Source: Clostridia bacterium (GTDB taxonomy: Bacteria; Bacillota; Clostridia; Christensenellales; Borkfalkiaceae). Taken from it: a DNA stretch of 64,000 nucleotides. Shown here piece after piece: positions 1,731 to 64,000 of the stretch (its first letter is position 1; the number at the start of each line of letters is the position of its first letter). Both the position numbers and the translations under genes were made by a program. The notes beneath the pieces were generated by a model. That model did not search any database. It was not told where the DNA came from and saw nothing but the letters and a program-made list of their open reading frames with translations. The stretch lies in the NCBI GenBank assembly GCA_017407325.1, contig JAFQWV010000027.1, positions 31,623 through 95,622 on the forward strand, read 5' to 3'.

Positions 1731-1838
1731 TTTAATGTCCTTGCTCGCGACTTTCGTGCGCGCGTTAGATTAATTATTAACATTTTAGCATTATTTTTAC
1801 AAATAATCAATCAAATTGACAGATTTTAGCGCAATTAC

Positions 1839-1867
1839 TTGACAATATAGCGATATTTTAATAAAAT
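1839..1867 (+). promoter_or_regulatory. sigma-A-type promoter of glyQS
   Basis: TTGACA (1839-1844), 17-nt spacer, TAAAAT (1862-1867); about 30 nt upstream of the glyQS SD. Confidence 0.6.
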
Positions 1868-1899
1868 ATCAAGGAAATTAAAATTTAGAAGGTAAAATT

Positions 1900-3276
1900 A
1901 TGTCAAACAATCAAGTTACGATGGATAAAATTGTTAATCTTTGCAAATCGCGCGGTATCATTTTCCCCGGTAGTGAAATTTACGGCGGTATGGGCAATAC
2001 TTGGGATTACGGTCCTATCGGCGTAGAAATCAAAAACAATATTAAAAAATGCTGGTGGAAGAAATTCGTTCAAGAAAGCGAAAATTCTTACGGCGTTGAC
2101 GCTGCAATCTTGATGAACGCACGCGTTTGGGATGCTAGCGGTCACACCGCATCTTTCTCAGACCCTAAAATGGACTGTAAAGAGTGTAAAACTCGCCACC
2201 GTGCCGACAACCTAATCGAAGCGCACTCTAAAGGAACGGTTAATGCAGACCTACTTTCAAACGAAGAAATGGAACAATATATTAAAGACAACAACGTTTG
2301 CTGTCCAAGATGTGGTAAGTCTAACTTTACCCCAATACGACAGTTCAATCTTATGTTTGAAACTTCACGCGGTGTAACTGAAGAAGGACAAAACAAAATT
2401 TACCTTCGCCCAGAAACTGCTCAAGGCGAATTCGTAAACTTTCTAAACGTTCAAAGAACGACTCGCGCAAAAGTTCCGTTCGGTATCGCTCAGATCGGTA
2501 AAGCCTTCCGTAACGAAGTTACGCCGGGCAACTTTATCTTCAGAACTATCGAGTTTGAACAAATGGAGCACCAATTCTTCTGCAAAGAAGGTCAAGACCA
2601 AGAATATTACGAAATTTATAAAAATCTTGCGTGGGAATTTTTAAAATCTATCGGTATTGACGAAAGTCATATTCGCTTTAAAGACCACGACAAACTTGCA
2701 CACTACGCAAAAGCTGCGTGCGATATTCAATATCAATTCCCTATCGGCTGGTCAGAGCTTAACGGTATTCACAATCGCACTAATTACGACCTATCCCGCC
2801 ACCAAGAATATTCTGGAAAGAGTATGCTTTACGTAGATCCGTTCACGAACGAAAAGTATATTCCTTACGTTATCGAATACTCAATCGGTGCAGACAGACT
2901 TATGCTTGCAGTCCTTTCTGAAGCGTACGAAGAAGAAACTCTCGAAAATGGCGAAACCCGTCAAGTTATGCACTTCCACCCTGCAATCGCTGCTTATAAA
3001 GTTGCTGTTTTACCACTTCAGAAAAATCTTTCTGAAAAAGCGCGCGAAGTACAAAAGATGCTCGCAAAACGCTTTATGGTAACTTACGACGAAGCAGGCT
3101 CTATCGGTAAACGTTATCGCCGTCAAGACGAAATCGGAACGCCGTACTCTGTTACTATCGACTTTGACACGATGGAAAACGACACCGTTACCGTTCGCGA
3201 CCGCGACACGATGGAACAAATCAGAATTAAAATTAGTGAACTATCCGACTATATCGCAGAAAAAATTGCTTATTAA
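1900..3276 (+). CDS. glyQS: glycine--tRNA ligase (single-chain alpha2 type)
   Basis: 458-aa ORF with a class II core (RPETAQG, FRNEVTPGNFIFRTIEFEQME) and a C-terminal anticodon-binding domain. AGAAGG SD precedes the ATG. Confidence 0.93.
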   Translation: MSNNQVTMDKIVNLCKSRGIIFPGSEIYGGMGNTWDYGPIGVEIKNNIKKCWWKKFVQESENSYGVDAAILMNARVWDASGHTASFSDPKMDCKECKTRHRADNLIEAHSKGTVNADLLSNEEMEQYIKDNNVCCPRCGKSNFTPIRQFNLMFETSRGVTEEGQNKIYLRPETAQGEFVNFLNVQRTTRAKVPFGIAQIGKAFRNEVTPGNFIFRTIEFEQMEHQFFCKEGQDQEYYEIYKNLAWEFLKSIGIDESHIRFKDHDKLAHYAKAACDIQYQFPIGWSELNGIHNRTNYDLSRHQEYSGKSMLYVDPFTNEKYIPYVIEYSIGADRLMLAVLSEAYEEETLENGETRQVMHFHPAIAAYKVAVLPLQKNLSEKAREVQKMLAKRFMVTYDEAGSIGKRYRRQDEIGTPYSVTIDFDTMENDTVTVRDRDTMEQIRIKISELSDYIAEKIAY

Positions 3277-3295
3277 TCGACTTATAGCCTAATTT

Positions 3296-3340
3296 TTGCC
3301 GTTTTGAAGGTTTTCAAAACGGCAATTTTATTTTTGTTTT
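3296..3340 (+). terminator. intrinsic terminator after glyQS
   Basis: TTGCCGTTTTGAAggTTTTCAAAACGGCAA followed by TTTTATTTTTGTTTT. Confidence 0.85.
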
Positions 3341-3427
3341 TAAATTAAAATTTCAACAGTTATTTTTTTCACACGAAAATAACTTACAGTTTTCGCTAAA
3401 ATTACACTTAGTTTTTACAAAATTTGG

Positions 3428-44136: not shown

Positions 44137-45159
44137 TTAGCGTTGAACGCGACCTGATGCGTCCCCACCAGCTAAATTTTCAACTTCTTCTTTAGAAACA
44201 AGGTTGAAGTCGCCGTTGATAGTGTGCTTTAATGCGCTTGCAGCAACTGCAAATTCTAAAGCCTTACCTTGATCGGTTGGGTAAGTTAATAAGCCGTGAA
44301 TTAAACCGCCAGAGAAAGAGTCACCACCACCAACGCGGTCAATGATTGGGTTAACGTCGTAACGCTTAGATTGATAGAATTCTTTACCATTGTAGATAAG
44401 AGCCTTCCAGCCGTTGTGAGTTGCAGAGAAAGATTCTCTTAAAGTAGAAACAACGTACTTAAAGCCGAATTCTTTAGCCATAGCCTTGAAGATACCTTCG
44501 TAGCCAGCAGCATCAGTCTTACCAGCGTTTACGTCAGCTTCAGGCTTGAAGCCTAAGCAAAGTTCAGCGTCTTCTTCGTTACCGATACAAACGTCAACGT
44601 ACTTCATAAGAGGTTTCATGATAGAGATAGCCTTTTCGCTAGTCCATAATTTTTTACGGAAGTTAAGGTCAACTGAAACGGTAACACCGTGGCGTTTTGC
44701 AGCTTCACAAGCAAGACGAGTAAGTTCAGCACTCTTATCAGAGATAGCTGGAGTAATACCAGACCAGTGGAACCAGTCAGCACCTTCCATGATAGCGTCG
44801 AAATCGAAATCTTGTGGATCAGCTTCAGCAATAGCACTGTTTGCGCGGTCGTAGATAACCTTACTTGGACGCATAGATGCGCCGGTTTCAAGGAAGTAAA
44901 TACCAACTCTGTCGCCACCACGAGCAATATAATCAGTCTTAACGCCGTATTTTCTTAATGCGTTAACAGCGCTTTGACCAATTTCGTGTTTAGGAAGTTT
45001 GGTTACGAAGTAAGCATCGTGACCGTAGTTAGCGCAAGAAACAGCAACGTTTGCTTCGCCACCGCCGTAAACAACGTCGAAAGCGTCAGATTGAACGAAA
45101 CGACGGTTTCCAGGAGTTGAAAGACGTAACATAATTTCGCCTAAAGTAACAATTTTCAT
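44137..45159 (-). CDS. kdgK: 2-dehydro-3-deoxygluconokinase (PfkB family)
   Basis: Start at ATG 45159 (AAGGAG SD). MKIVTLGEIMLRLSTPG...GGGEANVAV... and the C-terminal DRVGGGDSF motif. Confidence 0.85.
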   Translation of the reverse strand: MKIVTLGEIMLRLSTPGNRRFVQSDAFDVVYGGGEANVAVSCANYGHDAYFVTKLPKHEIGQSAVNALRKYGVKTDYIARGGDRVGIYFLETGASMRPSKVIYDRANSAIAEADPQDFDFDAIMEGADWFHWSGITPAISDKSAELTRLACEAAKRHGVTVSVDLNFRKKLWTSEKAISIMKPLMKYVDVCIGNEEDAELCLGFKPEADVNAGKTDAAGYEGIFKAMAKEFGFKYVVSTLRESFSATHNGWKALIYNGKEFYQSKRYDVNPIIDRVGGGDSFSGGLIHGLLTYPTDQGKALEFAVAASALKHTINGDFNLVSKEEVENLAGGDASGRVQR

Positions 45160-45307
45160 TATAATTCTCCTTATCAGACAGCCTAATTTCAAGGCTTGTC
45201 CAAATTTTTTTCATTACATATATTATAATACAAGAACTAATTATCGTCTATTTTTTTTATTAGCAACTTTATACACAAAACGGATATTTAGCAGTTAAAA
45301 ACAGAAA

Positions 45308-46489: not shown

Positions 46490-46523
46490 TTTATCACCGT
46501 AAATATTATTTTTTTTATAGTTT

Positions 46524-46549
46524 TCAAGGGATGAAAACTCATCCCTTGA
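46524..46549. terminator. hairpin downstream of the giant ORF (no U-tract on the minus strand)
   Basis: TCAAGGGATGAaaacTCATCCCTTGA. T-rich flanks suit only a plus-strand reading. Confidence 0.35.
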
Positions 46550-46577
46550 ATTTTGTTTAGTTGTGTTAAAAATTTGA

Positions 46578-49500
46578 TTATTTAGTATAATCTAGCAATA
46601 CCGAATGTTGATAAGTACCTTCTGCGTAATTACCGATTACTGCGCTAGCTACGTGTGATGCGCTAACGCTAAATCCCGCAGTCAAACTATCAGCTTCTGC
46701 ACCGTTTAACTTAACTTTTGCAATAGGAGTAAACTCGATGTCACAATTATCGTTATTTACAAAGTTTCCGTCATTATCGTAAACGACAAGATCAGAAATA
46801 ACACCCGAGAAGGTTATAATTGCATTACCAGCTTCAACGCTTTGAGTCATATTCATAAAGTCTTGACCAGTACCAACGTTGTAAGTTGTTCCGTCCTTTT
46901 CGTAGTTAAAGTTCATAGTAACTGAAACTGCGCCGCTAAGGTTCGACTTATTCTTCATAAGCTCTGCAACGTAATTAGTACCGTAGAACTCTAAATGAGC
47001 GGTAAAGCGAATACCCGTGTAATCCTTATTAAGTCTTATCGAACCACCTTCGGTGAACGAAAGTTTAGTGTACATTGCAGTCCACTCACCAGCTGGAGCC
47101 GTTCCGTTTTGACCTACAGCCGTAACGCCCTTATCCGTCCAGCACAGGAATTCAAATCCACTTGGTGCGTCAGGAGCATTTGGCATAGTACCGTCTTGAT
47201 AAGTCTTATAAAGATATGCGTTTTCTTCGCCGTTCTTAGTTACTTCGATAGTAGCTGAAACAGTTTGTGAAACACCAACCTTTAATTCATACGAACCAGC
47301 GTGAACACTACCTAAAACGTAGTGAGTTCCCCAAATGGTAGTATCAATTTGGCTGTTCCAAGTAACTGCTAAAGTAATTTCCGTACCACTATCTGCAGTA
47401 GAGTTAGTGCTGATTTCAGCCTTAACTTTGTCAAGACGGTAATCGCTGTTTAATGCAGTAGTATCTTCAATAGAGTAAATCTTAACGATATAGTAAGGAA
47501 CTGCGCTATTTAAAACGATAATTTCAATGGTAGTAGCGTAATGTCCATTGTCAAGTAGTTCAAGATTAGAACCGTTCCAAACGTAACCGCTTTCAAGAAC
47601 TAATTCAACAGGTACTGAATATCTTCCTGCCGCGACGTTATGTGCGCCCATAGTTAAGTCGTAAATAGTTTCGTCGCTTGGGTCGTCAGCGTTAGTCGCT
47701 TCAGCAAGTTTCCACTTAATTTCGAATACGCTTTCAAATACTTTTTCACCATTTATACCGTCTAACGCGTAAGGAATTTGGACTTGAATAGTTTCGTCGC
47801 TACGAACAGTTGGGGTATCAATCTCAATATCCGTAATCGAAATCGTCCAGAACGCGTAAAGAACTGTATCGCCTTCGATAAATACTTCGTCATCCAAACC
47901 GTAAATTTCTCCACTTCCGTCAGGATATAACGACCAGCCTTCGAATTCAGCAACGGTATTATCAGGAAGAATATATTCAGCCGTTACTGTAAAGTAAGTA
48001 CTGTTAGCGTGTTGGACAGATACTGGCATAGTAGCACCAGTATCGAACGTATCAACGAAAGTAATTACTACGTTGCCCGTTACCTTTTCAAAGCCTGCAT
48101 AAATTGTTACTGCCGTATCCGTAGAATTTGCCTTTAACGAATTGATAAAGTCAATAGTAAACGCTTGGTTAATATCAAATTCTTGAGCTCCTTCATTGTC
48201 GGTATACCAACCTACGAAAGAATAACCAGGAATTTGCGGTCTAACGTGTAGAGCGCTACCTAAAGATGCAGTTCCTTGAGTATGAACGAACGGAATTGCA
48301 TCGCCTACAGGCACGATAACGGAATCGTATAAATCTGCATTTTGATTGAACTCGTCGTCGTTTGCAATGACACTAAACTTTTCGAAGTTAACTGTTATAC
48401 CCCATCTTGCGTAAAGGGTAAACGTTTCATCGTCAGGTTCTAACGCCATAACCTTGTTAGGATTATCACCGTCAAATACCCAAGTTCTTTCAAAACCTTG
48501 GCTATCAATATAGTACCAGCTGTGAATTACGTAACCGTTTGCAGTTGCCGTAATAGTTGGAAGTTCAGTATTGAAAGTGAACATACCGCTGTTATTTTCG
48601 AGCGTTTTGCCTTCAACTTCTAAAGTAGCAAAATCAATGTTTGCATTTCCACTTTCGAAAGTTATCTTGTATTCGTTCGCTCTCCAAACAGCAAATAGCG
48701 TAATGTTTTCTGTCAACGTGATAACGCTTTCAGTCGTATACTCAGCAGTTGGACTATTTTGAACCAACGACCAACCGACGAACGTATAACCCATAAGGTT
48801 AGTAAATTTATCGGTTAGTGCGTATCTGTAACCTATCGGGTAAACGTTACTGTCTTGAACGACAGGATAAGCAGAACCAACGACTTCTGCGTATTCAGTC
48901 TTAAAGGTTACCTTAGCACCAAAGTCTGCTTGAAGGTCAATCTCATAAATATCGTTATCCGTGATTATACCCGAACTTTCAAGTGATGCTTGACCGAAAT
49001 TCCAATCCGCGCCGTTGTAAGTCCAAGTACGGAAGGTACGCGTCGTATTAATATAAGAAGGATTTTCCGCAAGAACAGGTGCGTCGAATAATTCGGTGTA
49101 TGATACCATATCCGTAGTTATAAGTTCGTTACCGTTCTTATAGTTAATCGTGTAAGTCTTTGGTGTCCAATCTGCAGTAACTACGACGTGATCATTTAAC
49201 ATGATGTTAGACGAGAATATTTCGCCGTTACTATAATACCAGTCAACGAAGTTGTAACCAACGCGACTTAATTCTAAATCTTTAAGTGCTTGTTCTCTGC
49301 CAACACCTCTAATCGTAATAACTTCATTAACTTGCTTATTCTTAGGTATTTTGTACTCAACGGTATTTCCGAAACCTGAGTCGAACGTGAGAGTATAATA
49401 ACCTACGTTAAATACCGCATATAAGGTTGAAACTTTTTCTTCGTTGCCTTCAACAATTACGTCTGAATAAAGATCAATATCGTAAAGTCCGCCTGCTTGG

Positions 49501-52500
49501 TATGATGCAACTTGAGCAGATTGATCAATAGACCAACCGATAAATTCGATATTTTGAGCAGCCGGTGCGTTGTTTAATCCAGATTCAGCGAAAGTAGGCA
49601 ACTCAATCTTCGCACTCTTAACGAACGGAGTAGCATTTGCATAAGTTCCACTACCATCGGTAGATAAGTATTTTTCAACGCCTGCATATACAAACTTAAC
49701 CTTAACGATATTATCGCTAGTAGTTTTTACAGGATAAGCATTAATTAACAACTTAGAAATGATTGTTTCGTCGCCTACCGACTTAACGAAAAGTTCAGTT
49801 AGACCGTTCGTGTTTATTGATAGCGTCGCAAGTTCAGCATTTGTGTAAACCGCTAAATCGCTTGAAGTCGCTAAAGAGTTACCACTTGCGTCAACTACTG
49901 ATAACGTACTTGAATTGTTCGACGTTCTAACGCCACCAACAAACTTAACTTCAACCCTTTCAACACCATTAGGAATTGAAATCTTCAACGCATTTTCGCC
50001 TGCGTCTAAAGTTAAGTATCCGTTTTCGTTAGCGTAACTGTTCGATAATCCAGTAAGAACTAATTGGTTACCAACGTCACCGTTAGAATCGATTACTAAG
50101 TCACCAGCAACACCTTGCGTCCAGTCGCTTGAATCTTTTCTTTCAAAACCAACGCCCGCGTTTGCATTTTTACTATCTTGGATAGTAACGTGTGCTGATG
50201 CTTGGTAAGTATTTGATTCTATTGTTTCATCTTCATTATTAGTTGTAATAAACGCATAACCTATATCAGCGTACAAAGTAGTCGTGAAGACGTATTCGTT
50301 ACCGATGTCTTTATTGAAATTGTCACAAGTCCATACAAGACTGTCAGGAATCCAATCTTTAGAAACACCGCTTCTGTCTATGTAATAACCTCTAACTTCA
50401 AACGCTGAAATTACTGCAGATTTAGTAGTTCCGATAGGATAAATGAAATTCTTTTCAACGAGTGGTTCATTGTCAGTAAATTGAATTATGATATTTCTGA
50501 GAGTCAAGTCTAACGTTACGCCAATTTGTTGTAAGTTTTCATTAACGCCGTCACTAAATGCAAAACTACCATAATCACTATCGTCAAGCTTTATATAACC
50601 TGTGAGAGTTTGAGTTCCACTTTGTAAGCTAGAAAGCGTCCATCCGCTAACTGCAAGTGACCAGTCGATAGCAAGATTCTTACCAAAGCCGTCACCCGTT
50701 ACCATTACGTTTGCAGGAAGCTCTAAGGCGCTTGCCGAAACAATTGCAGTTCCACTTGTAGAACCTTCTTCTCTGTAAACGTTTTCCATAACGTCAACTA
50801 TATATTTTTCTAAATCTTGTAGCTCGTTTGGTGTTACGATTTCCTTAGTATGAATATCCTCAATGAAGTATGCGTACAAGTAAATCGTATCGCCGTCAAT
50901 CATTTCAAACGACGGATAGAACTTATTTTCACCGTCAAACGTCGCTTGATTTTGGAATACGCCGTCGTCAAGATACCAACCCATAAAGATATAACCGTTT
51001 AAAGTTGGATCTTCACTAGGTTTAGTAATACCGTCAACTAAATTAAACGTTCCGCCATCGTGCGTTGCTTCATTGCTTATAAACTCGTAATTGTAAGTAA
51101 TAGGAGTCCACTTAGCGTAAAGCGTAATATCTTCAGAAACTGTTAATTCTTGACCGTAAGTGTATGCCACTGCACCACCTTCTGTCGTTGCCCAACCGGC
51201 AAACGTATAACCGTCACGGTGGAAGTGGTTGATATCGACGATAGTTGAACCACTTACGAGATAATCGTAAGTTTCTTCAGCGCCTTCTATATTATTGTTA
51301 TAAGTAAGCGTATTACCTACAAATTGATCGTTTGAAACGCTAGCGCTAATTCCAACGATATAAATAGCGCTATTTCCCGTTGTAGTAATATTAATAGTCG
51401 AAGCTTCGCTTACTGTAGTTGCGTAAACTGCTATGTCAGCAACGAACGGAGTAAACGTACTACCATCATCAAACGTTCTTGATACAGAATATTCTGTACC
51501 GTTGATAGTAAATTTGCTTGAACCACTTGCTACAACAGCAGAAACTCTTATAGACAACGCACTTTCAGTAGTAATGCCACTAACGTTTACGCTAATAGTA
51601 TTACCTTTTGCAAGAGAAAGCATAGGCTTAGACATAGCGTTAGAACCTGCCGTTGCACCACTTGCGTCAATAGTTAATACGTCGCCGTTTTTAGCAATAA
51701 TTTTTCCGTTATATTTAGTAGTCCAATCATTACCTAAAGTTTGAGAGCAATCGGTGTAAACCGTATCAATCGCTTGTAGTTCGCTAGAGTATGCGTCCCA
51801 CTTAGCGGTTAAAGTTTTACCCGAGCCCCATTGTGCGTATAAAACCGTACCTTCAGGAATGACACCTACTAAGCGATTATCAGATGCATTAGGGTTGAAA
51901 ATATCACCCGGATAATAAGTATCACCTTGACCGTTAGATTGAGTATTCCAACTTAAGAATACTTTATCTTCTCTTGTTTCTGCAGTCATATCAAACTCGT
52001 TTTCCGAAAGTGGGCCACGACCGTTAGTGTAATACTTAGTAAACGAATCAGTTGAACCGTCGTTAGCATAGTAAGTCAACGCCCTTGCACGTTGCCATAC
52101 AGCGTAAAGCGTAATATTACCGTCAAGTTCTAACGATTTACCAACTTGATAGTTTTGTTCAATACTATCTGAGCCTTTCGTTCTAGACCAACCGATAAAT
52201 TCGTAGCCTTCGCGCTCGAAGAAGTTCTTTTCAACGATAGCGTCATCACCCGAACCGTTTTCGGCGTAAACGACTTCACGAGTTAACGCGTTATCTGTGC
52301 CGTCGTTTGCGTGATAAGTAATAATATGACTTTCGTCCTCAACCATAGTACACTCAACCTTAATGCCGGTTAAGTAAATATTTGTTGATCTATGAGTATT
52401 TCTAACCGTAAATACGGTTTCATCTCCCGAATATTCATATATATGATATGAAGGAGAGAACTCGTAGAAGTAGTTAAAGTCTGTTTCATTATCAGTTTCC

Positions 52501-55500
52501 GTGTAGGAGTGGTCAGTAACCAACATTTTATCTTTACCGCTGTTCAACGGACCAACCTCTAACGTTACGTCGTTACCTGATGCACGGAATCTAACTGCAT
52601 AAACTGAGATTTTAACAGAAGCATAACCCTTTGGAACTACTACGTAGATAAACGGAGCATTAAGACTTGTTTGGTGATAACCTTTAATCATTGACCAAGT
52701 TTGACCGTGATAGTCTGTATCAACGAGTGCCGCAGTAATACCGTCGTCTTCGTCAACGACAGTTTCGTCGTCAGCAATAATCTTAACTTCACCGTTTCTT
52801 GCAACGATCGTACCAGGAATCGTCGCTTCGTCAGTTGCAACTTGATAGTAGTCTGACCAAGCCTTATCGTGCGTATTAGAATTATTGTTATAGAGTACGT
52901 GGTCGCCAGAGCCTGTGTAAGCAAACGCTGTAAATTCAGCAGAATACGTTGCGTAATCTTCAGCTTCTACTACGGTTACTTTGCAATAAACGTAATACGT
53001 ACCGTCTTGACTTCTATCATAAGCTTGACTGTCAATTTCAACACCAGCCCAACTAGAATACCAAACCGTACCACTAGGTGCAGTGTCTAAAGTTGCCCTA
53101 AAGATATATGTACCTGCTACGTTTGCATTATAAGCAACACTAGTCCAACTACCTACGATAACCGCGTAGTCGTAGTCGCTTGTCTCGTTACCGTTTATGT
53201 CGCAAACTACAAATTCAGTAGGTAAACTGTTGATAATTTCAGATTCAGTAGTACCTTCTTGAACGGTCTTTTCTAAGTCTTTAACGATAACAGGTAAAGT
53301 AGCCGTATACCAATTTGCGGTAACAGTCGTATCTTCGTTGAACGTCGTATCTTGCGTAATGCTTGGAGACCAACCGTCAAACGTATATTCATAACCGTTT
53401 ACCGTAAATCTGACTTCAGAGAAATCAGGCATAGAGTCAAGGCTATCGCCACTGTAAATTTTATATTCAAGTGCAAACGAACCAAAAACTTGACTAATTT
53501 GATCGCTTGTCATACCAGCAGGCGCGTTCACGTCGAAAGTGATAGTAATCTTTGGTTCTTCTTCCATTATAACGTAAAGATTATTAGTTTCACTTGTGAC
53601 AGTTAAAACGTCGCCAGGGTTATAATAACTTGCTGTTCCGCTTGTGGCGGTTGCCCATCTACTGAACAAATAGTGATCAGGTAAATCAAGGTGTTCAGTT
53701 TGCGGTTTAACGATTACTTTTGCCTGATTTAAATAGTTATAAGGTTCTTCTATCGCTTCGCCGTAAGAATTATTGTCATTGATAACTGTATGGTAATATA
53801 ATTTGTTAGTAGAGTCTTCAATATTCTCATCGTTTATGTTTTCATCTTCGTATTGAGCGTTAACAACGATAGAATGAAGCGCAGTATTGTTACCGCTTGA
53901 GAATAAGTAAAGAATATTTCCGTAATCATCAGTCGTACTTATACTTAAATTCGTATAAGTTGCACCAACAGTTTGACTAAGCGGAACTTGTATTCCATCT
54001 TCAGTCCAAAGCGAAACGTTATCTTTCGTTGCATTCGTTACTTTAATAACGATTAAAAGCATCGAATACTCATTTGGTAAGTCAATTTTAATCGGCGCGT
54101 CATTTTTATAAGATGAGTTACTGAAAGTCGCACCTGTTAAATTGATAATACCGTCGCTTGTTATTTCGCCAATATTATCTGCGTCAACTACGATAGAAAC
54201 TTCACCGTTTTCTGACAACGTATAGCGGTCGTTTGTTAAAGTAAGTCCGCTATTCCATGCAGTTCTACCGTCTGACATATAACCGGCACCAGCCATAACT
54301 TGCGCGCCAATTACGTAAACTTCAACGATAGATTCGACCGTTATAGTTGACGTTTCAACTTCTCCAATCTCGTAAAGATATCCACTTGGAACGCTTATCG
54401 TACCAGTTACTTTATAGAAACCAGCCACGTCAATATTTGCATAGTTACTGATATTTTTAGCCGTGTAATTACCGTCTAATTCTGTTGCGTAAGTCGCATT
54501 TACGTAATCCCAATCAACAGTCCAACTTGCCGTAGAACCGTTAGCAAGACGTATCGTCGTAGTGCTTGGTAAATATAAACCGTAAACTTTAGCATCAGCA
54601 AGCGGAACTTTACCGCGTGTTGATTCAGGAGTATCTGCACTATCAACAACCGTATACCACTTAGCGTATAGAGTCATATCTCTTAATACGTTATCAATCG
54701 AATCTGTATAAACGTTGCCGAGTGAATCTACCCAATGGCTGAATACGTAACCTTTAGAAGAAGTGGTCGGAACAATAGCTGTAAGATCTAACGAACCACC
54801 GTTTTCAACTTTTTGATCAGCGATAGCACCGTCAAAAGGTCTAGCGTCGTTATCGTCAGTAACAAACGAAATCGTTCTTTCAACGTCTGTATTAATTTCC
54901 GTAGTCAATTCTAACGAAATTTCATAGAATCTTGCACCACTACTAAAGTTTAAGTAATAAGTAATATCATCACCGTTTTCATCTGCGGTGTCAAACGAAC
55001 CAGAAGTACCGGTCAAGTATGTATTTGAAACAGATGGAGTAATGATTGCAGTTTCCCCATTACCCATAGAAGATCCTATAGTTTTAGAAACCCAAATATT
55101 AATTTGTCCGTTACTACTTGGAGTACCTACAACTTTAACTTTAAACGAAGAATAAACAGAACTTGGAACTTTAAAACTAATATATCTTGTCGATTTTGAA
55201 GATCCACCAGTCTTAATTACCGTACCAGTTTGTAAATCACCACTACCAAATACGATATCCGTTCTTTCTTCTGCCATATTTGATAAACCGTGGAAAGTTA
55301 CTTCAATACCTTGCGAGTTAGGCACGGTTAGTTGTTCACCATTTTTATAAATGATAAAGTTTTCTATTTCCGTAGGTATATCAATCTTTTTTTCCCAAAC
55401 AGCGTATAAAGTAACCGTTGCATCTTGAGTATTAGCAAGGTTTTCAACGCTTTCACCGTTTAGATATACCACGTCACCGTTTGCGCTCGTTGCCCAGCCT

Positions 55501-58500
55501 TTAAAAGTGTAACCTTCTAGCGTAAAGCCGTTTTGAGTTAATGCTGTAGCCTGACCGTAAGTTGCAACTATCGGACTCATTTCTCCCGTTGCATCTTCAT
55601 TATTTTTATTAAACGCGATATTGTACGTAATAGGATTCCAAGTAGCAGTTAAAGTTACGTCACTTGCTGGCATCGTAAACGAAGCGTTTGCTTGTTTTAC
55701 GCCGTCAAACGCACTTGATTCCCAACCAGCGAAAGTATAACCTAATCTTGAAGGATTAGCCCCACTGATTGTAAACGTAACACCTTCTTTAAACCTATTA
55801 GAATTGCTTGGCATTGAAATTTCTTCGCCATCAACACCGTCTACGTAAGTTACGCTGTAAGTTGCAGTCCAACTTGCCGTAAGCGTTACGTTATTTTCAG
55901 GCATAGTAAACGTTTCACCTGCTTGCTTAGTTCCGCTAAATGCAGATGACGTCCAACCTGCAAAAATATAATTAGTTCTTGTAGGAACAGTTGAACTGAT
56001 AGTAACAGTGTCCCCGCTTGAATATTGGGTACTGTCCGTAGGAGCGTTTGCCCCACCGTTAGCGTTATAAGTTACGGTATATGTATCTGGTGTTTCGCCC
56101 GTTGCGTTCCACTTAGCGTAAAGCGTAGTATCGTTTGTAACGACTGTATTGAAATCATAAGCCTTAGTTAAGTTACTGTCTAAGTACCAACCGCCAAAAG
56201 TATAATCAGTCTTAGTAGGAGCAGTCGGCTCAGAAACTTTTCCACCAACCGCAATATTAGAAACGTTACTTACAGAAGTTCCACCGTTTTCTTCAAAAGA
56301 CACGGTAAACGTCGGCGCCTTACTTAACTCAACTTTAATACCAGTTATAAAACCGTTATTGCTTGCATTTCCATTTGAAATAGTATAAGTTCCAGCAGAT
56401 AATGAACTAGTCGTATACGATCCAGGTGTAAACTCTTTGAATAAATTTGTTTCCGTATAGAACGCTGAAGAAGCGATTATATCACCTGTACTACCATTTA
56501 TTGAAACCGTCCAGTTTTTACTATTTGTTACGGTGGTTCCGTAAACAGTAACTTTTGCAGTATAACCTTCTTTAATAACGATAGTTGCAAAATCTTTACT
56601 ATTTGCCGCAATTCTTATAAACGGCTCAGTAATTGCACGGTGGGTTGAGTCAGTTATACACTTGCTTGAATCAAATTTTACCGTAACACCCGTGTTGTCA
56701 ATAATTGTATAATATCCATCGCTCAAATAATCAGCGTACAAATCTGTCCAACGAACGTTTTGGTAAATATCAGCATTAGTGGTAACGTATTTACCGTCAC
56801 TATCCATGGTATAAGAATTCCAAGTAACGGTAGAATCGCTTGCAGAAACTCTCGAACTGATAGAACCAGGAGCAATTTGGAAAACAGGTTTAAGCGTCAT
56901 ATCCTTCGTTGGATGTATTTCAGCATTTTCTGCATATTCAACACCGTCTTGGTCTATCCACGCTATAAAAGTATAATTTGTTCTTGCAACGTTAGTTGGC
57001 GCGTTAAAACCGTCAACAAAATTGGCATTAATCACAGAATTTAGTTTCGCGGTGATGTTTATACCTGTATTTCCGTTGAAATCGTAGGTAATATTGTAAT
57101 AATTATTTCTACTACCTGTTAAATCTTGCACTATGGCACTGAAGTCAATAGTAATTGTATACTCCGTGGCAGTCCAAACGGCGTAAATTGTTCCGTTTGA
57201 AAGTTCAGCATCTTCAATTAAATCACCATTTGCATCGAACAAATCTGCGCTTGTTGCGTTTTCAGAACTTGCAAAACCTGCAAAATCATAATGTTCTCTA
57301 CTTGGAATATGCGAACTTAAAAGTTCAGGATTTGCAATTGCTACTTTAATACCCGAAAGCGTTTCGCTACCGCCAGCGAAACTACCACCGTTAGCGTCAA
57401 GTGTAAACGTGTATGCTTCAACGCTATCTTCAAGTTCCCAACCTGCGTAAAGAACCATATCCGACGTAATAATGGTTGAGTTTAATACAAACTGCGTCGT
57501 TAATTGTGCGTCTATATACCAACCCGTAAAGTCGTAATTATCTCTTGTTGGCGTAGGTAAAGTACCAGTATAAACGTTACCGACAACAGCCGCGATATAT
57601 TCGTCACCCGAAAGCGTTCCGCCGTTTGCATCTAACGGAATTTGTCTTTCGTTAACGTTAGGTGTAGTAGGCTTGTTTACAGTTTCGTTAAAATATTCGA
57701 TAAACGCTAAAATAAACGGAGCCGTACCTTTTGAACCATTTGCAACCGCAGATTTATTAACATATGTAGACGCTAGACCTGAATTCGCATCACTTAAACT
57801 TGTAGCACCACAAATATCGTATACGTTAATATCCGAACCGCTAACTGATACAGAGTGTGCATAAATACCTTCAAAAACTTGTCTACCAATATCGTTATAT
57901 GAAAGAGGATCTCCCCCTGCAGTAGTAGTATAAGTTCCTGACAAATATCCCGCTTTACCGCCTTTCATTAAAGCGTAAGCAAACATCGCAGAACCTGACG
58001 TTTCAAGATAGTTATCCGTATTCTTTATCGTGCCTTGGTTTAAAACATGATAGAACATTTTAGAATCAGGGTCTTGATGCGCTAAAATACTATCCATCAA
58101 ATCTTTAAATACAGCCGTCAAATACGCTCTACTGCTCGTATATGTAGTATTTTTAAACGTAATTTCGTTTATCGTTTCGTCTGGCAAATAATCTAAAACG
58201 TCAACGAGCGACATAGCAAGCCAGCCTGTACCACGTGACCAGAAAGCCGAACTTACGCCGTCTTCATTTGCCCAAGGCGCAGCACCGTCCGCAGAATAAC
58301 CGTGGTAATAAAGGCCTGTGTCACTATCGCGCATATTATTAACTACTACGGCGTATTGGTCAATTAAGCCTTGCACGGTATATCTAAAATCAGTAGTTCC
58401 TAACTGCGCTTTACCGCCTGCCGCTAAATATCTTGCATAAAGCGGAGCGTACATATATAAACCGTCAAGCCAAACTTCATTAACTTCATCCGGCGTATGC

Positions 58501-60419
58501 CAAGGGTTATAAGTATCTTCAAGCCTATGACTCTCGTCGTTTGCAAACTGAGTTAACGCCCACTCAACTGCTCTTAAAAATTTGTCGTCACCAGAAAACT
58601 CGTAAGCATCGAATAAAACGCGGGTAGTTTGCAAGAAGTCAAGTCTTACGATATTGTTGAACTGGCTAGCACTTTCTGGATTAGGCGTGTCACTTGAATT
58701 GCTATATTGAACGATAGTACCGTCTTCACGGATATATCTTTCGAGATAATCAACCACGAATTGTTGATACTTATCTATCGTTTCTCCTTGAGTGTCTTCG
58801 TTTAAGTTATAAGAAAGGTTTACGAGCGAATTTAAGAAAATGCCGTTTACGTAGTTAAAGTAACCACGCCATTTTTCATCTTCACCAACCCACGAGCCTT
58901 GCACCATATTTTTCCATGCTTCGCCGTTAACCTTACTGTTATCCGTGGTTGTGTCTACGTGCCCTTCGATATAATCAAGAATCGCATCTTGATCAACTTC
59001 GTTAAACCAAAGTGCGTATAAAGTTATATCCTCACTTACCTTATCCAAGTCAAAATCAAACTCGTCTCTATAAGTCGATTTATCCGTAGTTTTATACCAA
59101 CCCATAAAGGTATAACCTGTTCTTTCTGGGTTCTCAGGTCTATCGACCATACCGTCGTCGCTTGCGACTTCCATCGTCTCTTTACCGTTAGACATTGTAC
59201 CGTCTTGCGCGTTAAACGTAATGGTATAATTATTCGCATTCCATTGCGCAACAAACGTTACGTCACTTGCTGGCATAGTAAACGTTCCGCCAGGCTGATA
59301 CGTATTATTACCGTATTTCCAGCCCGTAAACGTATATTTAGATCTTGTCGGAATAACGCTACTAATATTTATTTTATCGCCCGATTCGTACTGATTATTA
59401 TCACTCGGTGCACCGCTACCGCCGTTTGCATCATACGTCACCGTAAAATCAGTCTTTTCCGTCCAATTAGCAGTAAGTACTACATTGGCAGTTCCCATTG
59501 TAAACTGTCCGTTTGAAATTATGACACCACCACTTGTAACAGTCCAACCATCAAACAAGTAATTATCTTTAGTCGGATTAGAAGTTATAACGTCAGAAAT
59601 CTTTACCGTAGCACCTTCAGCAAAACTTCCACCGCTTACGTTACTAGTACTACCATTAAACTTACCACCGTTTAAATTATAAGTTACGGTATAAGTAGCC
59701 GCCGGCGTTTCACCTGCTGGAGTCATATCCGTAATACGTAAAGCACTAACTTTTACTTTTTTATTACTTCCAACCAATTCAACAGTATCAAATACTAAAG
59801 TACTAGTGCCAGCTGCAGCAGTTGTAAATTCAACATAACCAACTCTACCAGTACTTGAAGTGTGTTTGTAGTAATTCATAAAATCGGTAGGCGTGCTACC
59901 ACTAGCAAACGCAGTTGCATGTTTTGTAATATTCTTAGTTGAAGGAGTTTCAGAATTGAAAGAATACGAATAAGTAGGGCTCGATGTTAAATCAGCTGAA
60001 CCAGCGATTAACATTTCAACTTTTGCTGGATATAACAAGTTGAATTCAACAGTAATATCATCACTATGACCATTACTTTGCGTCAAAAGATTTTTGGATG
60101 TTCCACTAGCACCGTTAATAGAAACAGATTCAGCATCGCCTATTTTCCAATTTTGATTAGGTGATATAAAAGTAACATAATTAGCAGAACCAGTTGGCTG
60201 AACCGTTCCCAAAGTGTAACTCGTGCCAGATTTTGTAAGATATACAGTTTTAGCCCCAGTTATAGTAGCACTACTCAAATGCAAGTCAAATGTTTTATCG
60301 CCATTAGCAGCGCTTGCGGTGTATTTTGTGTCGAAGGTTGAAATGCCCACGCCAAAAGACACTACCATTAAAAACGATAGCGCAACGATTGCCAAACTTC
60401 TAAATTTCTTCTTAAACAT
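46578..60419 (-). CDS. giant secreted multidomain protein: Listeria-Bacteroides (InlB B-type) repeats, GH88/GH105-like domain, multiple beta-sandwich modules
   Basis: Uninterrupted 4613-codon ORF. AAAGGAG SD before the ATG. Signal peptide MFKKKFRSLAIVALSFLMVVSF. About 25 copies of the ..Y.V.Y..NGG ... Y.F.GW ... LYA.W repeat. No LPXTG or other anchor at the C-terminus. Confidence 0.9.
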   Translation of the reverse strand: MFKKKFRSLAIVALSFLMVVSFGVGISTFDTKYTASAANGDKTFDLHLSSATITGAKTVYLTKSGTSYTLGTVQPTGSANYVTFISPNQNWKIGDAESVSINGASGTSKNLLTQSNGHSDDITVEFNLLYPAKVEMLIAGSADLTSSPTYSYSFNSETPSTKNITKHATAFASGSTPTDFMNYYKHTSSTGRVGYVEFTTAAAGTSTLVFDTVELVGSNKKVKVSALRITDMTPAGETPAATYTVTYNLNGGKFNGSTSNVSGGSFAEGATVKISDVITSNPTKDNYLFDGWTVTSGGVIISNGQFTMGTANVVLTANWTEKTDFTVTYDANGGSGAPSDNNQYESGDKINISSVIPTRSKYTFTGWKYGNNTYQPGGTFTMPASDVTFVAQWNANNYTITFNAQDGTMSNGKETMEVASDDGMVDRPENPERTGYTFMGWYKTTDKSTYRDEFDFDLDKVSEDITLYALWFNEVDQDAILDYIEGHVDTTTDNSKVNGEAWKNMVQGSWVGEDEKWRGYFNYVNGIFLNSLVNLSYNLNEDTQGETIDKYQQFVVDYLERYIREDGTIVQYSNSSDTPNPESASQFNNIVRLDFLQTTRVLFDAYEFSGDDKFLRAVEWALTQFANDESHRLEDTYNPWHTPDEVNEVWLDGLYMYAPLYARYLAAGGKAQLGTTDFRYTVQGLIDQYAVVVNNMRDSDTGLYYHGYSADGAAPWANEDGVSSAFWSRGTGWLAMSLVDVLDYLPDETINEITFKNTTYTSSRAYLTAVFKDLMDSILAHQDPDSKMFYHVLNQGTIKNTDNYLETSGSAMFAYALMKGGKAGYLSGTYTTTAGGDPLSYNDIGRQVFEGIYAHSVSVSGSDINVYDICGATSLSDANSGLASTYVNKSAVANGSKGTAPFILAFIEYFNETVNKPTTPNVNERQIPLDANGGTLSGDEYIAAVVGNVYTGTLPTPTRDNYDFTGWYIDAQLTTQFVLNSTIITSDMVLYAGWELEDSVEAYTFTLDANGGSFAGGSETLSGIKVAIANPELLSSHIPSREHYDFAGFASSENATSADLFDANGDLIEDAELSNGTIYAVWTATEYTITIDFSAIVQDLTGSRNNYYNITYDFNGNTGINITAKLNSVINANFVDGFNAPTNVARTNYTFIAWIDQDGVEYAENAEIHPTKDMTLKPVFQIAPGSISSRVSASDSTVTWNSYTMDSDGKYVTTNADIYQNVRWTDLYADYLSDGYYTIIDNTGVTVKFDSSKCITDSTHRAITEPFIRIAANSKDFATIVIKEGYTAKVTVYGTTVTNSKNWTVSINGSTGDIIASSAFYTETNLFKEFTPGSYTTSSLSAGTYTISNGNASNNGFITGIKVELSKAPTFTVSFEENGGTSVSNVSNIAVGGKVSEPTAPTKTDYTFGGWYLDSNLTKAYDFNTVVTNDTTLYAKWNATGETPDTYTVTYNANGGANAPTDSTQYSSGDTVTISSTVPTRTNYIFAGWTSSAFSGTKQAGETFTMPENNVTLTASWTATYSVTYVDGVDGEEISMPSNSNRFKEGVTFTISGANPSRLGYTFAGWESSAFDGVKQANASFTMPASDVTLTATWNPITYNIAFNKNNEDATGEMSPIVATYGQATALTQNGFTLEGYTFKGWATSANGDVVYLNGESVENLANTQDATVTLYAVWEKKIDIPTEIENFIIYKNGEQLTVPNSQGIEVTFHGLSNMAEERTDIVFGSGDLQTGTVIKTGGSSKSTRYISFKVPSSVYSSFKVKVVGTPSSNGQINIWVSKTIGSSMGNGETAIITPSVSNTYLTGTSGSFDTADENGDDITYYLNFSSGARFYEISLELTTEINTDVERTISFVTDDNDARPFDGAIADQKVENGGSLDLTAIVPTTSSKGYVFSHWVDSLGNVYTDSIDNVLRDMTLYAKWYTVVDSADTPESTRGKVPLADAKVYGLYLPSTTTIRLANGSTASWTVDWDYVNATYATELDGNYTAKNISNYANIDVAGFYKVTGTISVPSGYLYEIGEVETSTITVESIVEVYVIGAQVMAGAGYMSDGRTAWNSGLTLTNDRYTLSENGEVSIVVDADNIGEITSDGIINLTGATFSNSSYKNDAPIKIDLPNEYSMLLIVIKVTNATKDNVSLWTEDGIQVPLSQTVGATYTNLSISTTDDYGNILYLFSSGNNTALHSIVVNAQYEDENINDENIEDSTNKLYYHTVINDNNSYGEAIEEPYNYLNQAKVIVKPQTEHLDLPDHYLFSRWATATSGTASYYNPGDVLTVTSETNNLYVIMEEEPKITITFDVNAPAGMTSDQISQVFGSFALEYKIYSGDSLDSMPDFSEVRFTVNGYEYTFDGWSPSITQDTTFNEDTTVTANWYTATLPVIVKDLEKTVQEGTTESEIINSLPTEFVVCDINGNETSDYDYAVIVGSWTSVAYNANVAGTYIFRATLDTAPSGTVWYSSWAGVEIDSQAYDRSQDGTYYVYCKVTVVEAEDYATYSAEFTAFAYTGSGDHVLYNNNSNTHDKAWSDYYQVATDEATIPGTIVARNGEVKIIADDETVVDEDDGITAALVDTDYHGQTWSMIKGYHQTSLNAPFIYVVVPKGYASVKISVYAVRFRASGNDVTLEVGPLNSGKDKMLVTDHSYTETDNETDFNYFYEFSPSYHIYEYSGDETVFTVRNTHRSTNIYLTGIKVECTMVEDESHIITYHANDGTDNALTREVVYAENGSGDDAIVEKNFFEREGYEFIGWSRTKGSDSIEQNYQVGKSLELDGNITLYAVWQRARALTYYANDGSTDSFTKYYTNGRGPLSENEFDMTAETREDKVFLSWNTQSNGQGDTYYPGDIFNPNASDNRLVGVIPEGTVLYAQWGSGKTLTAKWDAYSSELQAIDTVYTDCSQTLGNDWTTKYNGKIIAKNGDVLTIDASGATAGSNAMSKPMLSLAKGNTISVNVSGITTESALSIRVSAVVASGSSKFTINGTEYSVSRTFDDGSTFTPFVADIAVYATTVSEASTINITTTGNSAIYIVGISASVSNDQFVGNTLTYNNNIEGAEETYDYLVSGSTIVDINHFHRDGYTFAGWATTEGGAVAYTYGQELTVSEDITLYAKWTPITYNYEFISNEATHDGGTFNLVDGITKPSEDPTLNGYIFMGWYLDDGVFQNQATFDGENKFYPSFEMIDGDTIYLYAYFIEDIHTKEIVTPNELQDLEKYIVDVMENVYREEGSTSGTAIVSASALELPANVMVTGDGFGKNLAIDWSLAVSGWTLSSLQSGTQTLTGYIKLDDSDYGSFAFSDGVNENLQQIGVTLDLTLRNIIIQFTDNEPLVEKNFIYPIGTTKSAVISAFEVRGYYIDRSGVSKDWIPDSLVWTCDNFNKDIGNEYVFTTTLYADIGYAFITTNNEDETIESNTYQASAHVTIQDSKNANAGVGFERKDSSDWTQGVAGDLVIDSNGDVGNQLVLTGLSNSYANENGYLTLDAGENALKISIPNGVERVEVKFVGGVRTSNNSSTLSVVDASGNSLATSSDLAVYTNAELATLSINTNGLTELFVKSVGDETIISKLLINAYPVKTTSDNIVKVKFVYAGVEKYLSTDGSGTYANATPFVKSAKIELPTFAESGLNNAPAAQNIEFIGWSIDQSAQVASYQAGGLYDIDLYSDVIVEGNEEKVSTLYAVFNVGYYTLTFDSGFGNTVEYKIPKNKQVNEVITIRGVGREQALKDLELSRVGYNFVDWYYSNGEIFSSNIMLNDHVVVTADWTPKTYTINYKNGNELITTDMVSYTELFDAPVLAENPSYINTTRTFRTWTYNGADWNFGQASLESSGIITDNDIYEIDLQADFGAKVTFKTEYAEVVGSAYPVVQDSNVYPIGYRYALTDKFTNLMGYTFVGWSLVQNSPTAEYTTESVITLTENITLFAVWRANEYKITFESGNANIDFATLEVEGKTLENNSGMFTFNTELPTITATANGYVIHSWYYIDSQGFERTWVFDGDNPNKVMALEPDDETFTLYARWGITVNFEKFSVIANDDEFNQNADLYDSVIVPVGDAIPFVHTQGTASLGSALHVRPQIPGYSFVGWYTDNEGAQEFDINQAFTIDFINSLKANSTDTAVTIYAGFEKVTGNVVITFVDTFDTGATMPVSVQHANSTYFTVTAEYILPDNTVAEFEGWSLYPDGSGEIYGLDDEVFIEGDTVLYAFWTISITDIEIDTPTVRSDETIQVQIPYALDGINGEKVFESVFEIKWKLAEATNADDPSDETIYDLTMGAHNVAAGRYSVPVELVLESGYVWNGSNLELLDNGHYATTIEIIVLNSAVPYYIVKIYSIEDTTALNSDYRLDKVKAEISTNSTADSGTEITLAVTWNSQIDTTIWGTHYVLGSVHAGSYELKVGVSQTVSATIEVTKNGEENAYLYKTYQDGTMPNAPDAPSGFEFLCWTDKGVTAVGQNGTAPAGEWTAMYTKLSFTEGGSIRLNKDYTGIRFTAHLEFYGTNYVAELMKNKSNLSGAVSVTMNFNYEKDGTTYNVGTGQDFMNMTQSVEAGNAIITFSGVISDLVVYDNDGNFVNNDNCDIEFTPIAKVKLNGAEADSLTAGFSVSASHVASAVIGNYAEGTYQHSVLLDYTK
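57690..58982 (-). other. GH88/GH105-like (unsaturated glucuronyl/rhamnogalacturonyl hydrolase) domain within the giant protein (about aa 480-910)
   Basis: VWLDGLYMYAPLYA, SAFWSRGTGWLAMSLVD and NYLETSGSAMFAYALMKG match the (alpha/alpha)6 GH88/GH105 family motifs (YteR/UGL-like) as I remember them. Confidence 0.7.
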
Positions 60420-60528
60420 ATATGTACTCCTTTTCGGAAAAAGCCTTTTTTTGTTCTACTTTCCCCGACAACGGATTATTCCCGTATTTTACGCGCAAAA
60501 GCACGCGATAAATATTATAATATATAAT

Positions 60529-60557
60529 ATATTAACAAAACGCGACAAAATTGTCAA
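60529..60557 (-). promoter_or_regulatory. sigma-A-type promoter of the giant gene
   Basis: Minus strand reads TTGACA (60552-60557), 17-nt spacer, TAATAT (60529-60534); about 100-nt leader. Confidence 0.65.
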
Positions 60558-62339: not shown

Positions 62340-64000
62340 TTAACCATTTAATACTACGCCGTAAATTTCGGCTTGAGCATCAGTAAGTTGACCAGCATCA
62401 TAAAGCTTTTGCGCTTTACTTACGATTGTATCACTTTCAATTGCATCACTTTCAGCGATAATTGATACGCCGTTGATTGTAATCGTCATATCAACGTTTA
62501 ATGCGTTTTGTGCTTTTGCTGAATCAATACCAGTTATTGAAAGGTTTGCAAGATATCCACTTTGATTTTCGTTATAAGCAATATTAAGAACATCAACGTT
62601 TACGTTTGCACTAGAACCATTTGTAAGGTTAGCAACGTTAAACACAGCACTTGCATTTAAAGTTAAACCATTTAAAGCGTTTTCGTTTGCATCAACGATA
62701 GTTACAACGTAACCAAATCTAACTGCTGGACTTTCAGCACTCTTTCTAAAACTAATACCTAAATATTCAGCCTTAGCAAATGCATTTACATCACCAAACT
62801 TGCCAATATAAGTATAACCAAAATCTGAAATTTGAATTTCTTTAATATAAGTACTTGATTGCGAACCGTCAACTTCAAATCTGTAAACGCCATTTTCAGT
62901 TGTAACATATTCAAAATCTTTAAATGCACCTGCCGTTGTCGTAACCGTTGAAAGTGCAGTAGTACTATTATTATTATAGAAGGAAGATGCTACTTCTCTA
63001 CCCGAGTATATTGTAACAACAATTTTAGTGTTAGCTTCAGCAAAGAATTCAATATATGCACCATCTTTACCTTTTATCATACTATAAGATACATTATCAA
63101 TAGTTTGTGCTTCAACACCCCAATTGTTTGAACTGTTAGTTCCTAATGTATATCCCGCTTCTTGAGCATCATCAGCCGTTGTATAATTGTTAAAATCATA
63201 AGAAACAGCAGGTGTTAATAATGAGATATTAGCAGTTACTGTTGCGTTTGATACATCGTAACCAGTCTTCGCTTTTAAAGTACCAATAACAACGCCGTCA
63301 GCATATTCACCCCAAACAACTTCAAATTGAACCTCATCAATTGTTACAATTGCAGGTAAAGCGTCGTATATACCGTCTTGAGTAGCAGTAATATTAAGTG
63401 AAGTACTTGCAACAGCAATTTCTTTTACGATAACTTGCATTGTAGGAGCGGCTGCAGTTACGTCGTAGACGTTAGCGTCTACTGTTACGTTACCAGTTAA
63501 AGTATAGTTTTGAAGTTTGGTTGCGTCGTAATCTTTATCCCATTTCCAAGTTACAGGCAAAGAATATTCGCCAGAAGTAACTACGGTAGGAAGTTCGATT
63601 TCGTCTATTGCAGTTCCAAAATCAATTTCTACGTTAGAAACAGCGTCATATTCAGTGATTGAAGGCTTAACGAAGTTAGCGTCAAGTTCCCAAACTGCTT
63701 TAAAGGTTGTGTCAGAATTGATTGGAACTGTTGTAATATCAATTACAGTTGAACCGTCAGTTGACCAACCTAAGAAATTGTAACCAGTCTTAGTAGGTGC
63801 TGTAGGGGCAGACGTTAAAGTTTTACCTTCTTCAACAGTTACAGCTGCAACTTCGCTACCACCGTCAGTATCAAATGATACGGTGTAGTTAGTTACCAAC
63901 GGAGTGATTTCAACATCATAGATAAAAAACTTTCTGGCAGTTCCTGAATTACCACACATCAATGCCGCGTTAGCTGTAAAAACAGTGGTTCCTTTATCTA
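62340..64000 (-). CDS. Listeria-Bacteroides repeat / Ig-like / beta-sandwich module protein, N-terminus beyond the window edge
   Basis: The reading frame stays open to position 64000, upstream of the TTG/ATG given in the ORF track. Contains YTVSFDTDGG...YNFLGWS...FKAVW, a module ending STYIKEIQIS, and a C-terminal ISFR...AVRF domain like the giant protein's C-terminus. Confidence 0.85.
   Translation of the reverse strand, partial: DKGTTVFTANAALMCGNSGTARKFFIYDVEITPLVTNYTVSFDTDGGSEVAAVTVEEGKTLTSAPTAPTKTGYNFLGWSTDGSTVIDITTVPINSDTTFKAVWELDANFVKPSITEYDAVSNVEIDFGTAIDEIELPTVVTSGEYSLPVTWKWDKDYDATKLQNYTLTGNVTVDANVYDVTAAAPTMQVIVKEIAVASTSLNITATQDGIYDALPAIVTIDEVQFEVVWGEYADGVVIGTLKAKTGYDVSNATVTANISLLTPAVSYDFNNYTTADDAQEAGYTLGTNSSNNWGVEAQTIDNVSYSMIKGKDGAYIEFFAEANTKIVVTIYSGREVASSFYNNNSTTALSTVTTTAGAFKDFEYVTTENGVYRFEVDGSQSSTYIKEIQISDFGYTYIGKFGDVNAFAKAEYLGISFRKSAESPAVRFGYVVTIVDANENALNGLTLNASAVFNVANLTNGSSANVNVDVLNIAYNENQSGYLANLSITGIDSAKAQNALNVDMTITINGVSIIAESDAIESDTIVSKAQKLYDAGQLTDAQAEIYGVVLNG

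Follow-up and report, generated by a model that had tools for sequence, protein, structure and literature searches.

The 64,000-nucleotide window analysed here (positions 31,623 to 95,622 of contig JAFQWV010000027.1, assembly GCA_017407325.1, from a member of the Clostridia of the family Borkfalkiaceae) carries on its minus strand, at 46578-60419, a single open reading frame (ORF) of 4613 codons, to which we refer as the giant gene. Its product, the giant protein, is probably a secreted, acidic, modular protein of ~500 kDa, in which modules resembling carbohydrate-binding modules (CBMs) bind pectic glycans and a GH105 domain trims the products of lyases. A sequence-only reading of the window had described a secreted, anchorless giant built of repeats around a GH88/GH105-type domain and engaged in pectin processing or adhesion, and the results below support this central picture. 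Pectin ranks among the main dietary fibres, and a large part of its degradation in the gut is due to uncultured Clostridia, for which no systems of enzyme display are known.

The giant gene, its GH105 domain and the pectinolytic genome

The giant ORF extends over 13.8 kb without internal stops and is 2.6 times as long as the next-longest ORF of the genome, which encodes 1753 aa. All its features, for which coordinates are given throughout, lie on the minus strand. A promoter-like site (60529-60557), with TTGACA at 60557-60552, a 17-nt spacer containing TG, and TAATAT at 60534-60529, was read directly and recovered in a scan with 10 of 12 positions matching, which is a match to the consensus only. 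It is followed by the Shine-Dalgarno sequence AAGGAG (60427-60432, by direct reading), 7 nt 5' of the ATG. Residues 1-37 (60309-60419) form a predicted signal peptide, recognised by hydrophobicity, with the sequence KKKFR, a hydrophobic core that is the only hydrophobic segment of the protein (aa 5-30), and the cleavage motif A-S-A at positions 35-37. The mature protein has a computed mass of ~500 kDa and pI of 4.25. Neither a C-terminal LPXTG motif nor a second hydrophobic segment that could serve as a wall or membrane anchor was found, the C terminus being hydrophilic, and no SLH or CW_binding domain was matched by Pfam anywhere in the protein. The uninterrupted frame, the promoter, Shine-Dalgarno sequence and signal peptide, and the lack of a C-terminal anchor had all been read from the sequence before, and each of these observations holds.

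The catalytic domain occupies aa 480-915 (57675-58982), as delimited by Pfam, matches to solved structures and residue mapping. Pfam family PF07470 (Glyco_hydro_88), which spans both CAZy families GH88 and GH105, matched aa 513-910 with an E-value of 1.1e-50 (173 bits, the cut-off being 26.6; profile positions 23-349 of 352). Among solved structures, the domain is most similar to 4wu0, a YteR-like GH105 enzyme from C. acetobutylicum (2.4e-38), and to YteR of B. subtilis (3.9e-33). A GH88 structure entry reached only 6.6e-5, and the best similarity is thus not to the UGL-type enzymes, as would be expected of a GH88 member. A family profile built from the GH105 domain of the giant and seven single-domain relatives matched 4wu0 at 3e-146 and YteR at 5e-109, with the alignment reaching the N-terminal Tyr. 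The conserved pocket of YteR comprises Tyr41, Asp88, His132, Trp141, Asp143, Met147, His189, Trp211 and Trp217, to which an arginine equivalent to Arg213 is added (PMC4528949, CA_C0359 structure). In the profile alignment, all ten have identical counterparts in the giant (Y523, D594, H641, W650, D652, M656, H706, W727, W733 and R729), with D652 corresponding to the catalytic Asp143 of YteR.

Because the best-matching structures are of the GH105 type and the ten pocket residues are conserved, the domain is assigned by sequence to GH105, not GH88, with an intact active-site set, and is predicted to be active. It measures 436 aa, with insertions relative to the ~360 aa of YteR, and is 30-40% identical to characterised enzymes. 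The GH88/GH105-like call that the sequence-only reading had placed at about aa 480-910 can accordingly be narrowed to GH105; the motifs quoted for it, FWSRGTGW, WLDGLYMYAP and ETSGSAMFAYAL, are all found at conserved GH105 positions, the profile support is significant, and no catalytic residue is missing.

The remainder of the genome (1.59 Mb, a 28-contig draft, 95% complete) is rich in pectin-related genes, including six PL1, one PL9, GH28, CE8, KduI, UxaA, UxaB and UxaC. Two further GH105 genes encode a 375-aa enzyme of the cytoplasmic type, which adjoins GH28, UxaC, KduI, an ABC transporter, CE8 and the PL9 lyase, and a 511-aa lipoprotein, which adjoins UxaA and UxaB. The PL9 lyase is Pel9A-like and secreted, with 1272 aa and a C-terminal transmembrane segment (contig C1, 26856-30674). 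Judged from this gene content, the organism is a homogalacturonan-centred, lyase-based pectin specialist. The giant had previously been suggested to be a machine for pectin or glycosaminoglycan processing or for adhesion; the genome context favours pectin and not glycosaminoglycans.

Binding-like modules, repeats and the C-terminal domain

Seven segments of 130-200 residues, M1 to M7, are predicted beta modules, none of which matched Pfam or showed CBM-family membership by sequence profile. Since iterating a hidden Markov model (HMM) built on a complete beta module increasingly picked up Listeria-Bacteroides repeats, stricter jackhmmer searches and profile-profile comparison with hhalign were used instead. 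These placed M2 (aa 1195-1370; 56310-56837), M5 (aa 2500-2698; 52326-52922; jackhmmer, and hhalign 96%) and M6 (aa 2862-3032; 51324-51836; hhalign 90% to M2) in one group (90-96%) and M4 (aa 2060-2225; 53745-54242) and M7 (aa 3430-3560; 49740-50132) in another (71-77%), with M3 (aa 1676-1846; 54882-55394) borderline at 29-45% to M5. The N-terminal module M1 (aa 38-236; 59712-60308) remained unlinked and is strain-specific. None of the stretches left unassigned is long enough for a second catalytic domain.

A word-based search for homologues of the M2/M5-type module, conducted through a 1605-aa paralogue encoded elsewhere in the genome (contig C6), retrieved only orthologues of that protein, and the alignment used for folding was therefore limited to 9 sequences of paralogous and orthologous copies. 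The resulting AlphaFold2 model of M2 (pLDDT 78, pTM 0.79) was matched best by Foldseek to 8wc1, the carbohydrate binding domain of a putative pectate lyase (E-value of 5.8e-7), followed by CBM22, CBM35, CBM6 and CBM61. All these fold matches have E-values between 5.8e-7 and 1e-3 and a probability of ~1.0, at a sequence identity of 12-17%. According to the model, the M2 family is probably a CBM-like jelly roll, likely of the same fold class as CBMs, and is assigned to no CBM family. The beta-sandwich-like modules of the sequence-only reading are thus recovered as seven segments, one of which is modelled as CBM-like, whereas their descent from one single family is not demonstrable.

For the Listeria-Bacteroides repeats, Flg_new (PF09479) matched 15 stretches of the complete protein with 445 bits and TIGR02543 matched 9 with 233 bits, repeatedly surpassing the curated cut-off, and Flg_new_2 matched 4 stretches. 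An HMM trained on the giant itself identified 18 solid and 5 weak repeats and two more, degenerate, were recognised by eye, so that the earlier count of about 25 stands as a fair upper count. Self-comparison of the whole protein by BLAST returned the identity match only.

Three repeats precede the catalytic domain (aa 243-469; 59013-59693; Pfam and own HMM) and three follow it (aa 926-1177; 56889-57644; own HMM). Beyond M2 come four repeats at aa 1371-1673 (55401-56309; Pfam and own HMM), a single one at aa 1849-1919 (54663-54875; own HMM), and two pairs with one weak member each, at aa 2226-2371 (53307-53744) and aa 2699-2860 (51840-52325), both supported by the own HMM and a motif scan. A further pair at aa 3036-3180 (50880-51314; own HMM) is followed by an array of about eight, several of them degenerate, at aa 3588-4200 (47820-49658; own HMM and motif scan), and by a degenerate half repeat containing FEFLCW at aa 4390-4449 (47073-47252), recognised by motif scan and by eye.

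The Ig-like segments reported before are only partly borne out. The segment at aa 1920-2059 (54243-54662) is the sole one to pass the Big_4 (PF07532) cut-off, with 27.2 bits against 22.1 for aa 1949-1987 when scanned as a slice. The others are suggestive: aa 2372-2499 (52923-53306) gave a weak Big_4 match of 17 bits, below the cut-off, and aa 3185-3429 (50133-50867) comprises two segments of Ig-like size without a Pfam match, which may be Ig-like to judge from their size and sequence patterns common to the Big_4 segments. Two more segments of this size, at aa 4201-4389 (47253-47819), had no significant Pfam match and are likewise putatively Ig-like.

The chain ends in a domain with the signature GGSIRL...GIRF (aa 4450-4613; 46581-47072), predicted to be a beta sandwich in a low-confidence model (pLDDT 54) that had no fold match at E<=0.001. 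Among 200 genomes of the same family, a profile of the C termini of the giants (relatives are described below) recovered weak homologues in three. In the first of these homologues (L085), a domain of the GGSIRL...GIRF type is found right behind the signal peptide, and in another (L086, a secreted protein of genome G158, 343-3393) a GASIR...GIRF module is internal. In L086 this module comes after an HxHxDH segment that by eye belongs to a metallo-beta-lactamase-type domain. Because the weak homologues are N-terminal or internal, the idea of a dedicated C-terminal anchor is weakened, and the domain looks like a mobile module instead. The earlier claim that it also ends the neighbouring gene at 62340 did not hold up: with hhalign values of 0.2% for this product and 0.2-0.5% for it and the 1605-aa protein taken together, homology to the ends of these proteins is unproven, and neither was matched by an HMM to which L085 and L086 had been added.

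Relatives and neighbouring genes

Relatives of the giant were sought in a collection of 5.8 billion proteins, and those of its GH105 domain by exhaustive HMMER search over 1.84 billion cluster representatives. The collection contained three giants of the same architecture, P0002 (5949 aa), P0004 (6001 aa) and P0003 (6322 aa), which are allelic or orthologous to the one in the window and have their module order in common with it. Each carries two GH105 domains and is longer, whereas the giant of the window has one GH105 domain and the unique N-terminal module M1, without counterpart in P0002 or P0004. The GH105 domain of the giant in the window corresponds to the second one of the relatives (64-65% identity, versus 35-37% to the first). 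The C-terminal 3070 aa are colinear in all, at 94% identity to P0002, 82% to P0004 and 36% to P0003. Compared with the closest relative, identity is undetectable at aa 38-240, lies at 40-80% up to about aa 1400 and rises to 89-97% from aa 1500. Given this stepwise increase along the chain, the enzyme-bearing N-terminal third is hypervariable, with differences of whole cassettes, whereas conservation prevails in the C-terminal two thirds. P0002, P0004 and the giant of the window have identical signal peptides, although the some 200 residues that come next are unrelated; the signal peptide may have acted as an anchor for recombination or may be a specialised export signal.

No orthologue of the giant gene was found in the genomes of 22 other species of the genus or in 60 sampled genomes of the family, and a scan of genome contigs with the GH105 domain yielded no relative either. 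Of the cluster representatives, 1552 had a match to the GH105 domain. Beyond the cluster of the giant itself, the closest sequences are 40-43% identical and belong to multi-domain proteins of 1082-3126 aa, and in all the nearest relatives checked Listeria-Bacteroides repeats stand beside GH105. The metagenomic protein P0009 (3126 aa) combines 20 such repeats with GH105 and a PL1 pectate lyase; here, a lyase and the hydrolase trimming its product reside on one chain. Because the closest GH105 relatives are all fused to Listeria-Bacteroides repeats, the combination is not unique to the giant. By domain content, it is a recurring, unstudied architecture, and the giant stands out by the rarity of its size and of its number of CBM-like modules; the "unusual" of the sequence-only reading applies to size and not to the combination. 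No description of a GH105 fusion to Listeria-Bacteroides repeats was found in the literature searched.

The gene upstream of the giant gene (62340-63998, minus strand) runs off the window; on the genome contig (C19) its product measures 747 aa. It is a secreted protein with a signal peptide, a beta module, one Listeria-Bacteroides repeat, Ig-like segments and a second beta module, and the likeness of its C-terminal region to the C-terminal domain of the giant is at motif level only. Downstream, a 12-bp stem-loop (46523-46550) lies between the stop codon of the giant gene and an aminotransferase gene. Because its T-run is on the plus strand, opposite to the genes on either side, it is uncertain whether the stem-loop terminates the giant gene. 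A kdgK-like sugar kinase gene of the PfkB family (44137-45192, minus strand; Pfam PfkB, E-value of 8.7e-31), whose product may be tied to uronate catabolism, lies two genes downstream of the giant gene.

Other secreted proteins of the genome draw on this set of parts (beta module, Listeria-Bacteroides repeat, Ig-like domains), for example the PL9 lyase, a lipoprotein, the 62340 product and the 1605-aa protein. The N-terminal beta module of the PL9 lyase is possibly related to M2, with hhalign at only 37-44%. The C-terminal half of the lipoprotein reads by eye as beta-helix-like repeats and has no Pfam match. The 1605-aa protein carries an M2/M5-type module and Big_4 domains, as well as a last, unassigned domain preceded by eight EPEQPGT linker repeats in tandem, and its orthologues P0155-P0162 are 80-100% identical across several assemblies. 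The giant, the 62340 product, the 1605-aa protein and the PL9 lyase have in common a signal-peptide pattern in which a hydrophobic core ...SFG/FGxS.FS... is followed by K.AxA.

Proposed role, alternatives and comparison with known systems

In the mechanism that we propose, the giant chain would leave the cell of this pectin-specialist member of the gut Clostridia through the Sec pathway. More than 30 small beta domains (~25 beta-grasp repeats plus the Ig-like ones) probably form a long, flexible stalk, and the approximately seven CBM-like modules probably bind pectic glycans; particles of plant cell wall would in this way retain the protein and conceivably the cell as well. The secreted PL1 and PL9 pectate lyases would produce fragments whose non-reducing end is a 4,5-unsaturated galacturonate; GH105 would hydrate the vinyl ether of this residue and remove it. 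After uptake, KduI and the KdgK-type kinase would catabolise the GH105 product. The exact substrate of GH105 would be derived from either homogalacturonan or rhamnogalacturonan.

Several points weigh against this proposal. No anchor was found, and retention at the surface can only be surmised. No rhamnogalacturonan lyase was detected in the genome, PL11 being absent and the PL4 search uninformative, as its control was not recovered; for this reason, a substrate of the YteR type may not come from the organism itself. The M2/M5 profile matched no PDB sequence, and the TM-scores of M2 against CBM folds are modest (0.35-0.56). Finally, characterised GH105 enzymes of Bacillus such as YteR and YesR are intracellular, and an extracellular one frees its product outside the cell.

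The alternative that survives best, although we consider it unlikely, is that the giant is mainly an adhesin or surface fibre attaching to plant particles, host mucus or other cells, and that GH105 serves in sugar recognition or plays a minor role. More than 85% of the chain is made up of non-catalytic repeats and binding-like modules, and a hypervariable N-terminal third joined to C-terminal two thirds conserved at 82-94% is typical of exposed adhesin tips. The absence of the gene from the 22 congeneric species genomes would fit a niche- or strain-specific surface trait, and the cell already possesses a cytoplasmic and a lipoprotein GH105. The retention of all ten catalytic-pocket residues nevertheless argues for a working enzyme, and the existence of relatives with two GH105 domains, or with GH105 and a PL1 lyase together, suggests that catalysis has been selected for.

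Still less probable is that GH105 acts on unsaturated uronate ends outside pectin, such as those of lyase-cut ulvan-like or gum-type glycans or glucuronyl ends of arabinogalactan proteins or glycosaminoglycans. The family does include open-pocket enzymes active on unsaturated glucuronyl substrates, such as Nu_GH105 (PMC4528949), and the low identity of the domain to characterised enzymes and its insertions relative to YteR leave room for another specificity; however, the genome context is overwhelmingly pectinolytic, the pocket residues equal the YteR set, and the relative P0009 is fused to a PL1 pectate lyase. That the giant ORF is a chimera created in assembly, or an unexpressed gene in decay, can practically be dismissed: although the genome is a 28-contig draft and the window copy is ~1350 aa shorter than the three relatives, lacking their first GH105 cassette, the frame has zero stops over 13.8 kb, the start signals are intact, the longest DNA repeat within the ORF is 73 nt at 74% identity, as the sequence-only reading had expected in arguing from diverged repeats against an artefact, and relatives that were assembled independently align colinearly with the C-terminal 3070 aa at 82-94% identity, which together make an assembly artefact unlikely.

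Returning to the preferred reading of a secreted pectin-binding and pectin-trimming protein, a more far-reaching version can be put forward tentatively. The beta modules (M2/M5/M6, M4/M7, M3 and M1) could represent one or more new pectin-binding CBM families, and the giant could be a species-specific pectin-grappling fibre on the 100-nm scale, whose N-terminal enzyme tip, with one or two GH105 cassettes, is swapped between strains and whose conserved C-terminal part, including the GGSIRL...GIRF domain, docks non-covalently to the envelope by an undescribed mechanism.

If the preferred reading is correct, the giant would exemplify a presentation of a pectin-trimming enzyme that is non-cellulosomal, non-SLH and non-sortase, on one 500-kDa chain with a strain-variable tip. 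It would also offer candidates for new CBM families directed at pectic glycans, provide a predicted example of an exported GH105, for which an extracellular role is not obvious, and mark how strains of a pectin specialist with a small genome differ in niche. The understanding of GH105 enzymes or of Listeria-Bacteroides repeats as such is unchanged. Every recognisable part falls into a known family, and the design principle is not new.

Among known systems, YteR (PDB 1nc5/2d8l/2gh4) and CA_C0359 (4wu0) belong to the same Pfam family as the catalytic domain of the giant, with the ten pocket residues identical. They are single-domain proteins of ~360-375 aa, and YteR is intracellular, whereas the 436-aa domain of the giant is predicted to be exported and is embedded in a chain of 4613 aa. 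The carbohydrate-binding domain in 8wc1 and 8x8h and the jelly rolls of CBM22, CBM35, CBM6 and CBM61 are the best fold matches of M2, without a match at the level of sequence profiles. The uncharacterised metagenomic proteins P0006-P0009 and P0017, which contain the nearest GH105 sequences beyond the giant's own cluster, have Flg_new repeats next to GH105, as does the giant; most of them are 955-1280 aa long with 2-5 repeats, whereas the giant has 3-4 times their length and possesses the unassigned beta modules in addition. The experimentally studied xanthanase RuGH5a of a gut bacterium of Ruminococcaceae UCG-13, of the uncultured type, sets a precedent for joining a catalytic domain to CBMs and Listeria-Bacteroides repeats outside the cell: besides its signal peptide and single catalytic domain, this extracellular enzyme includes CBMs, multiple Listeria-Bacteroides repeats and undefined sequence (bioRxiv 10.1101/2021.06.02.446819). 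RuGH5a carries a GH5 domain acting on xanthan and three CBMs, as given in a figure legend, where the giant has GH105, ~25 repeats and about seven CBM-like modules.

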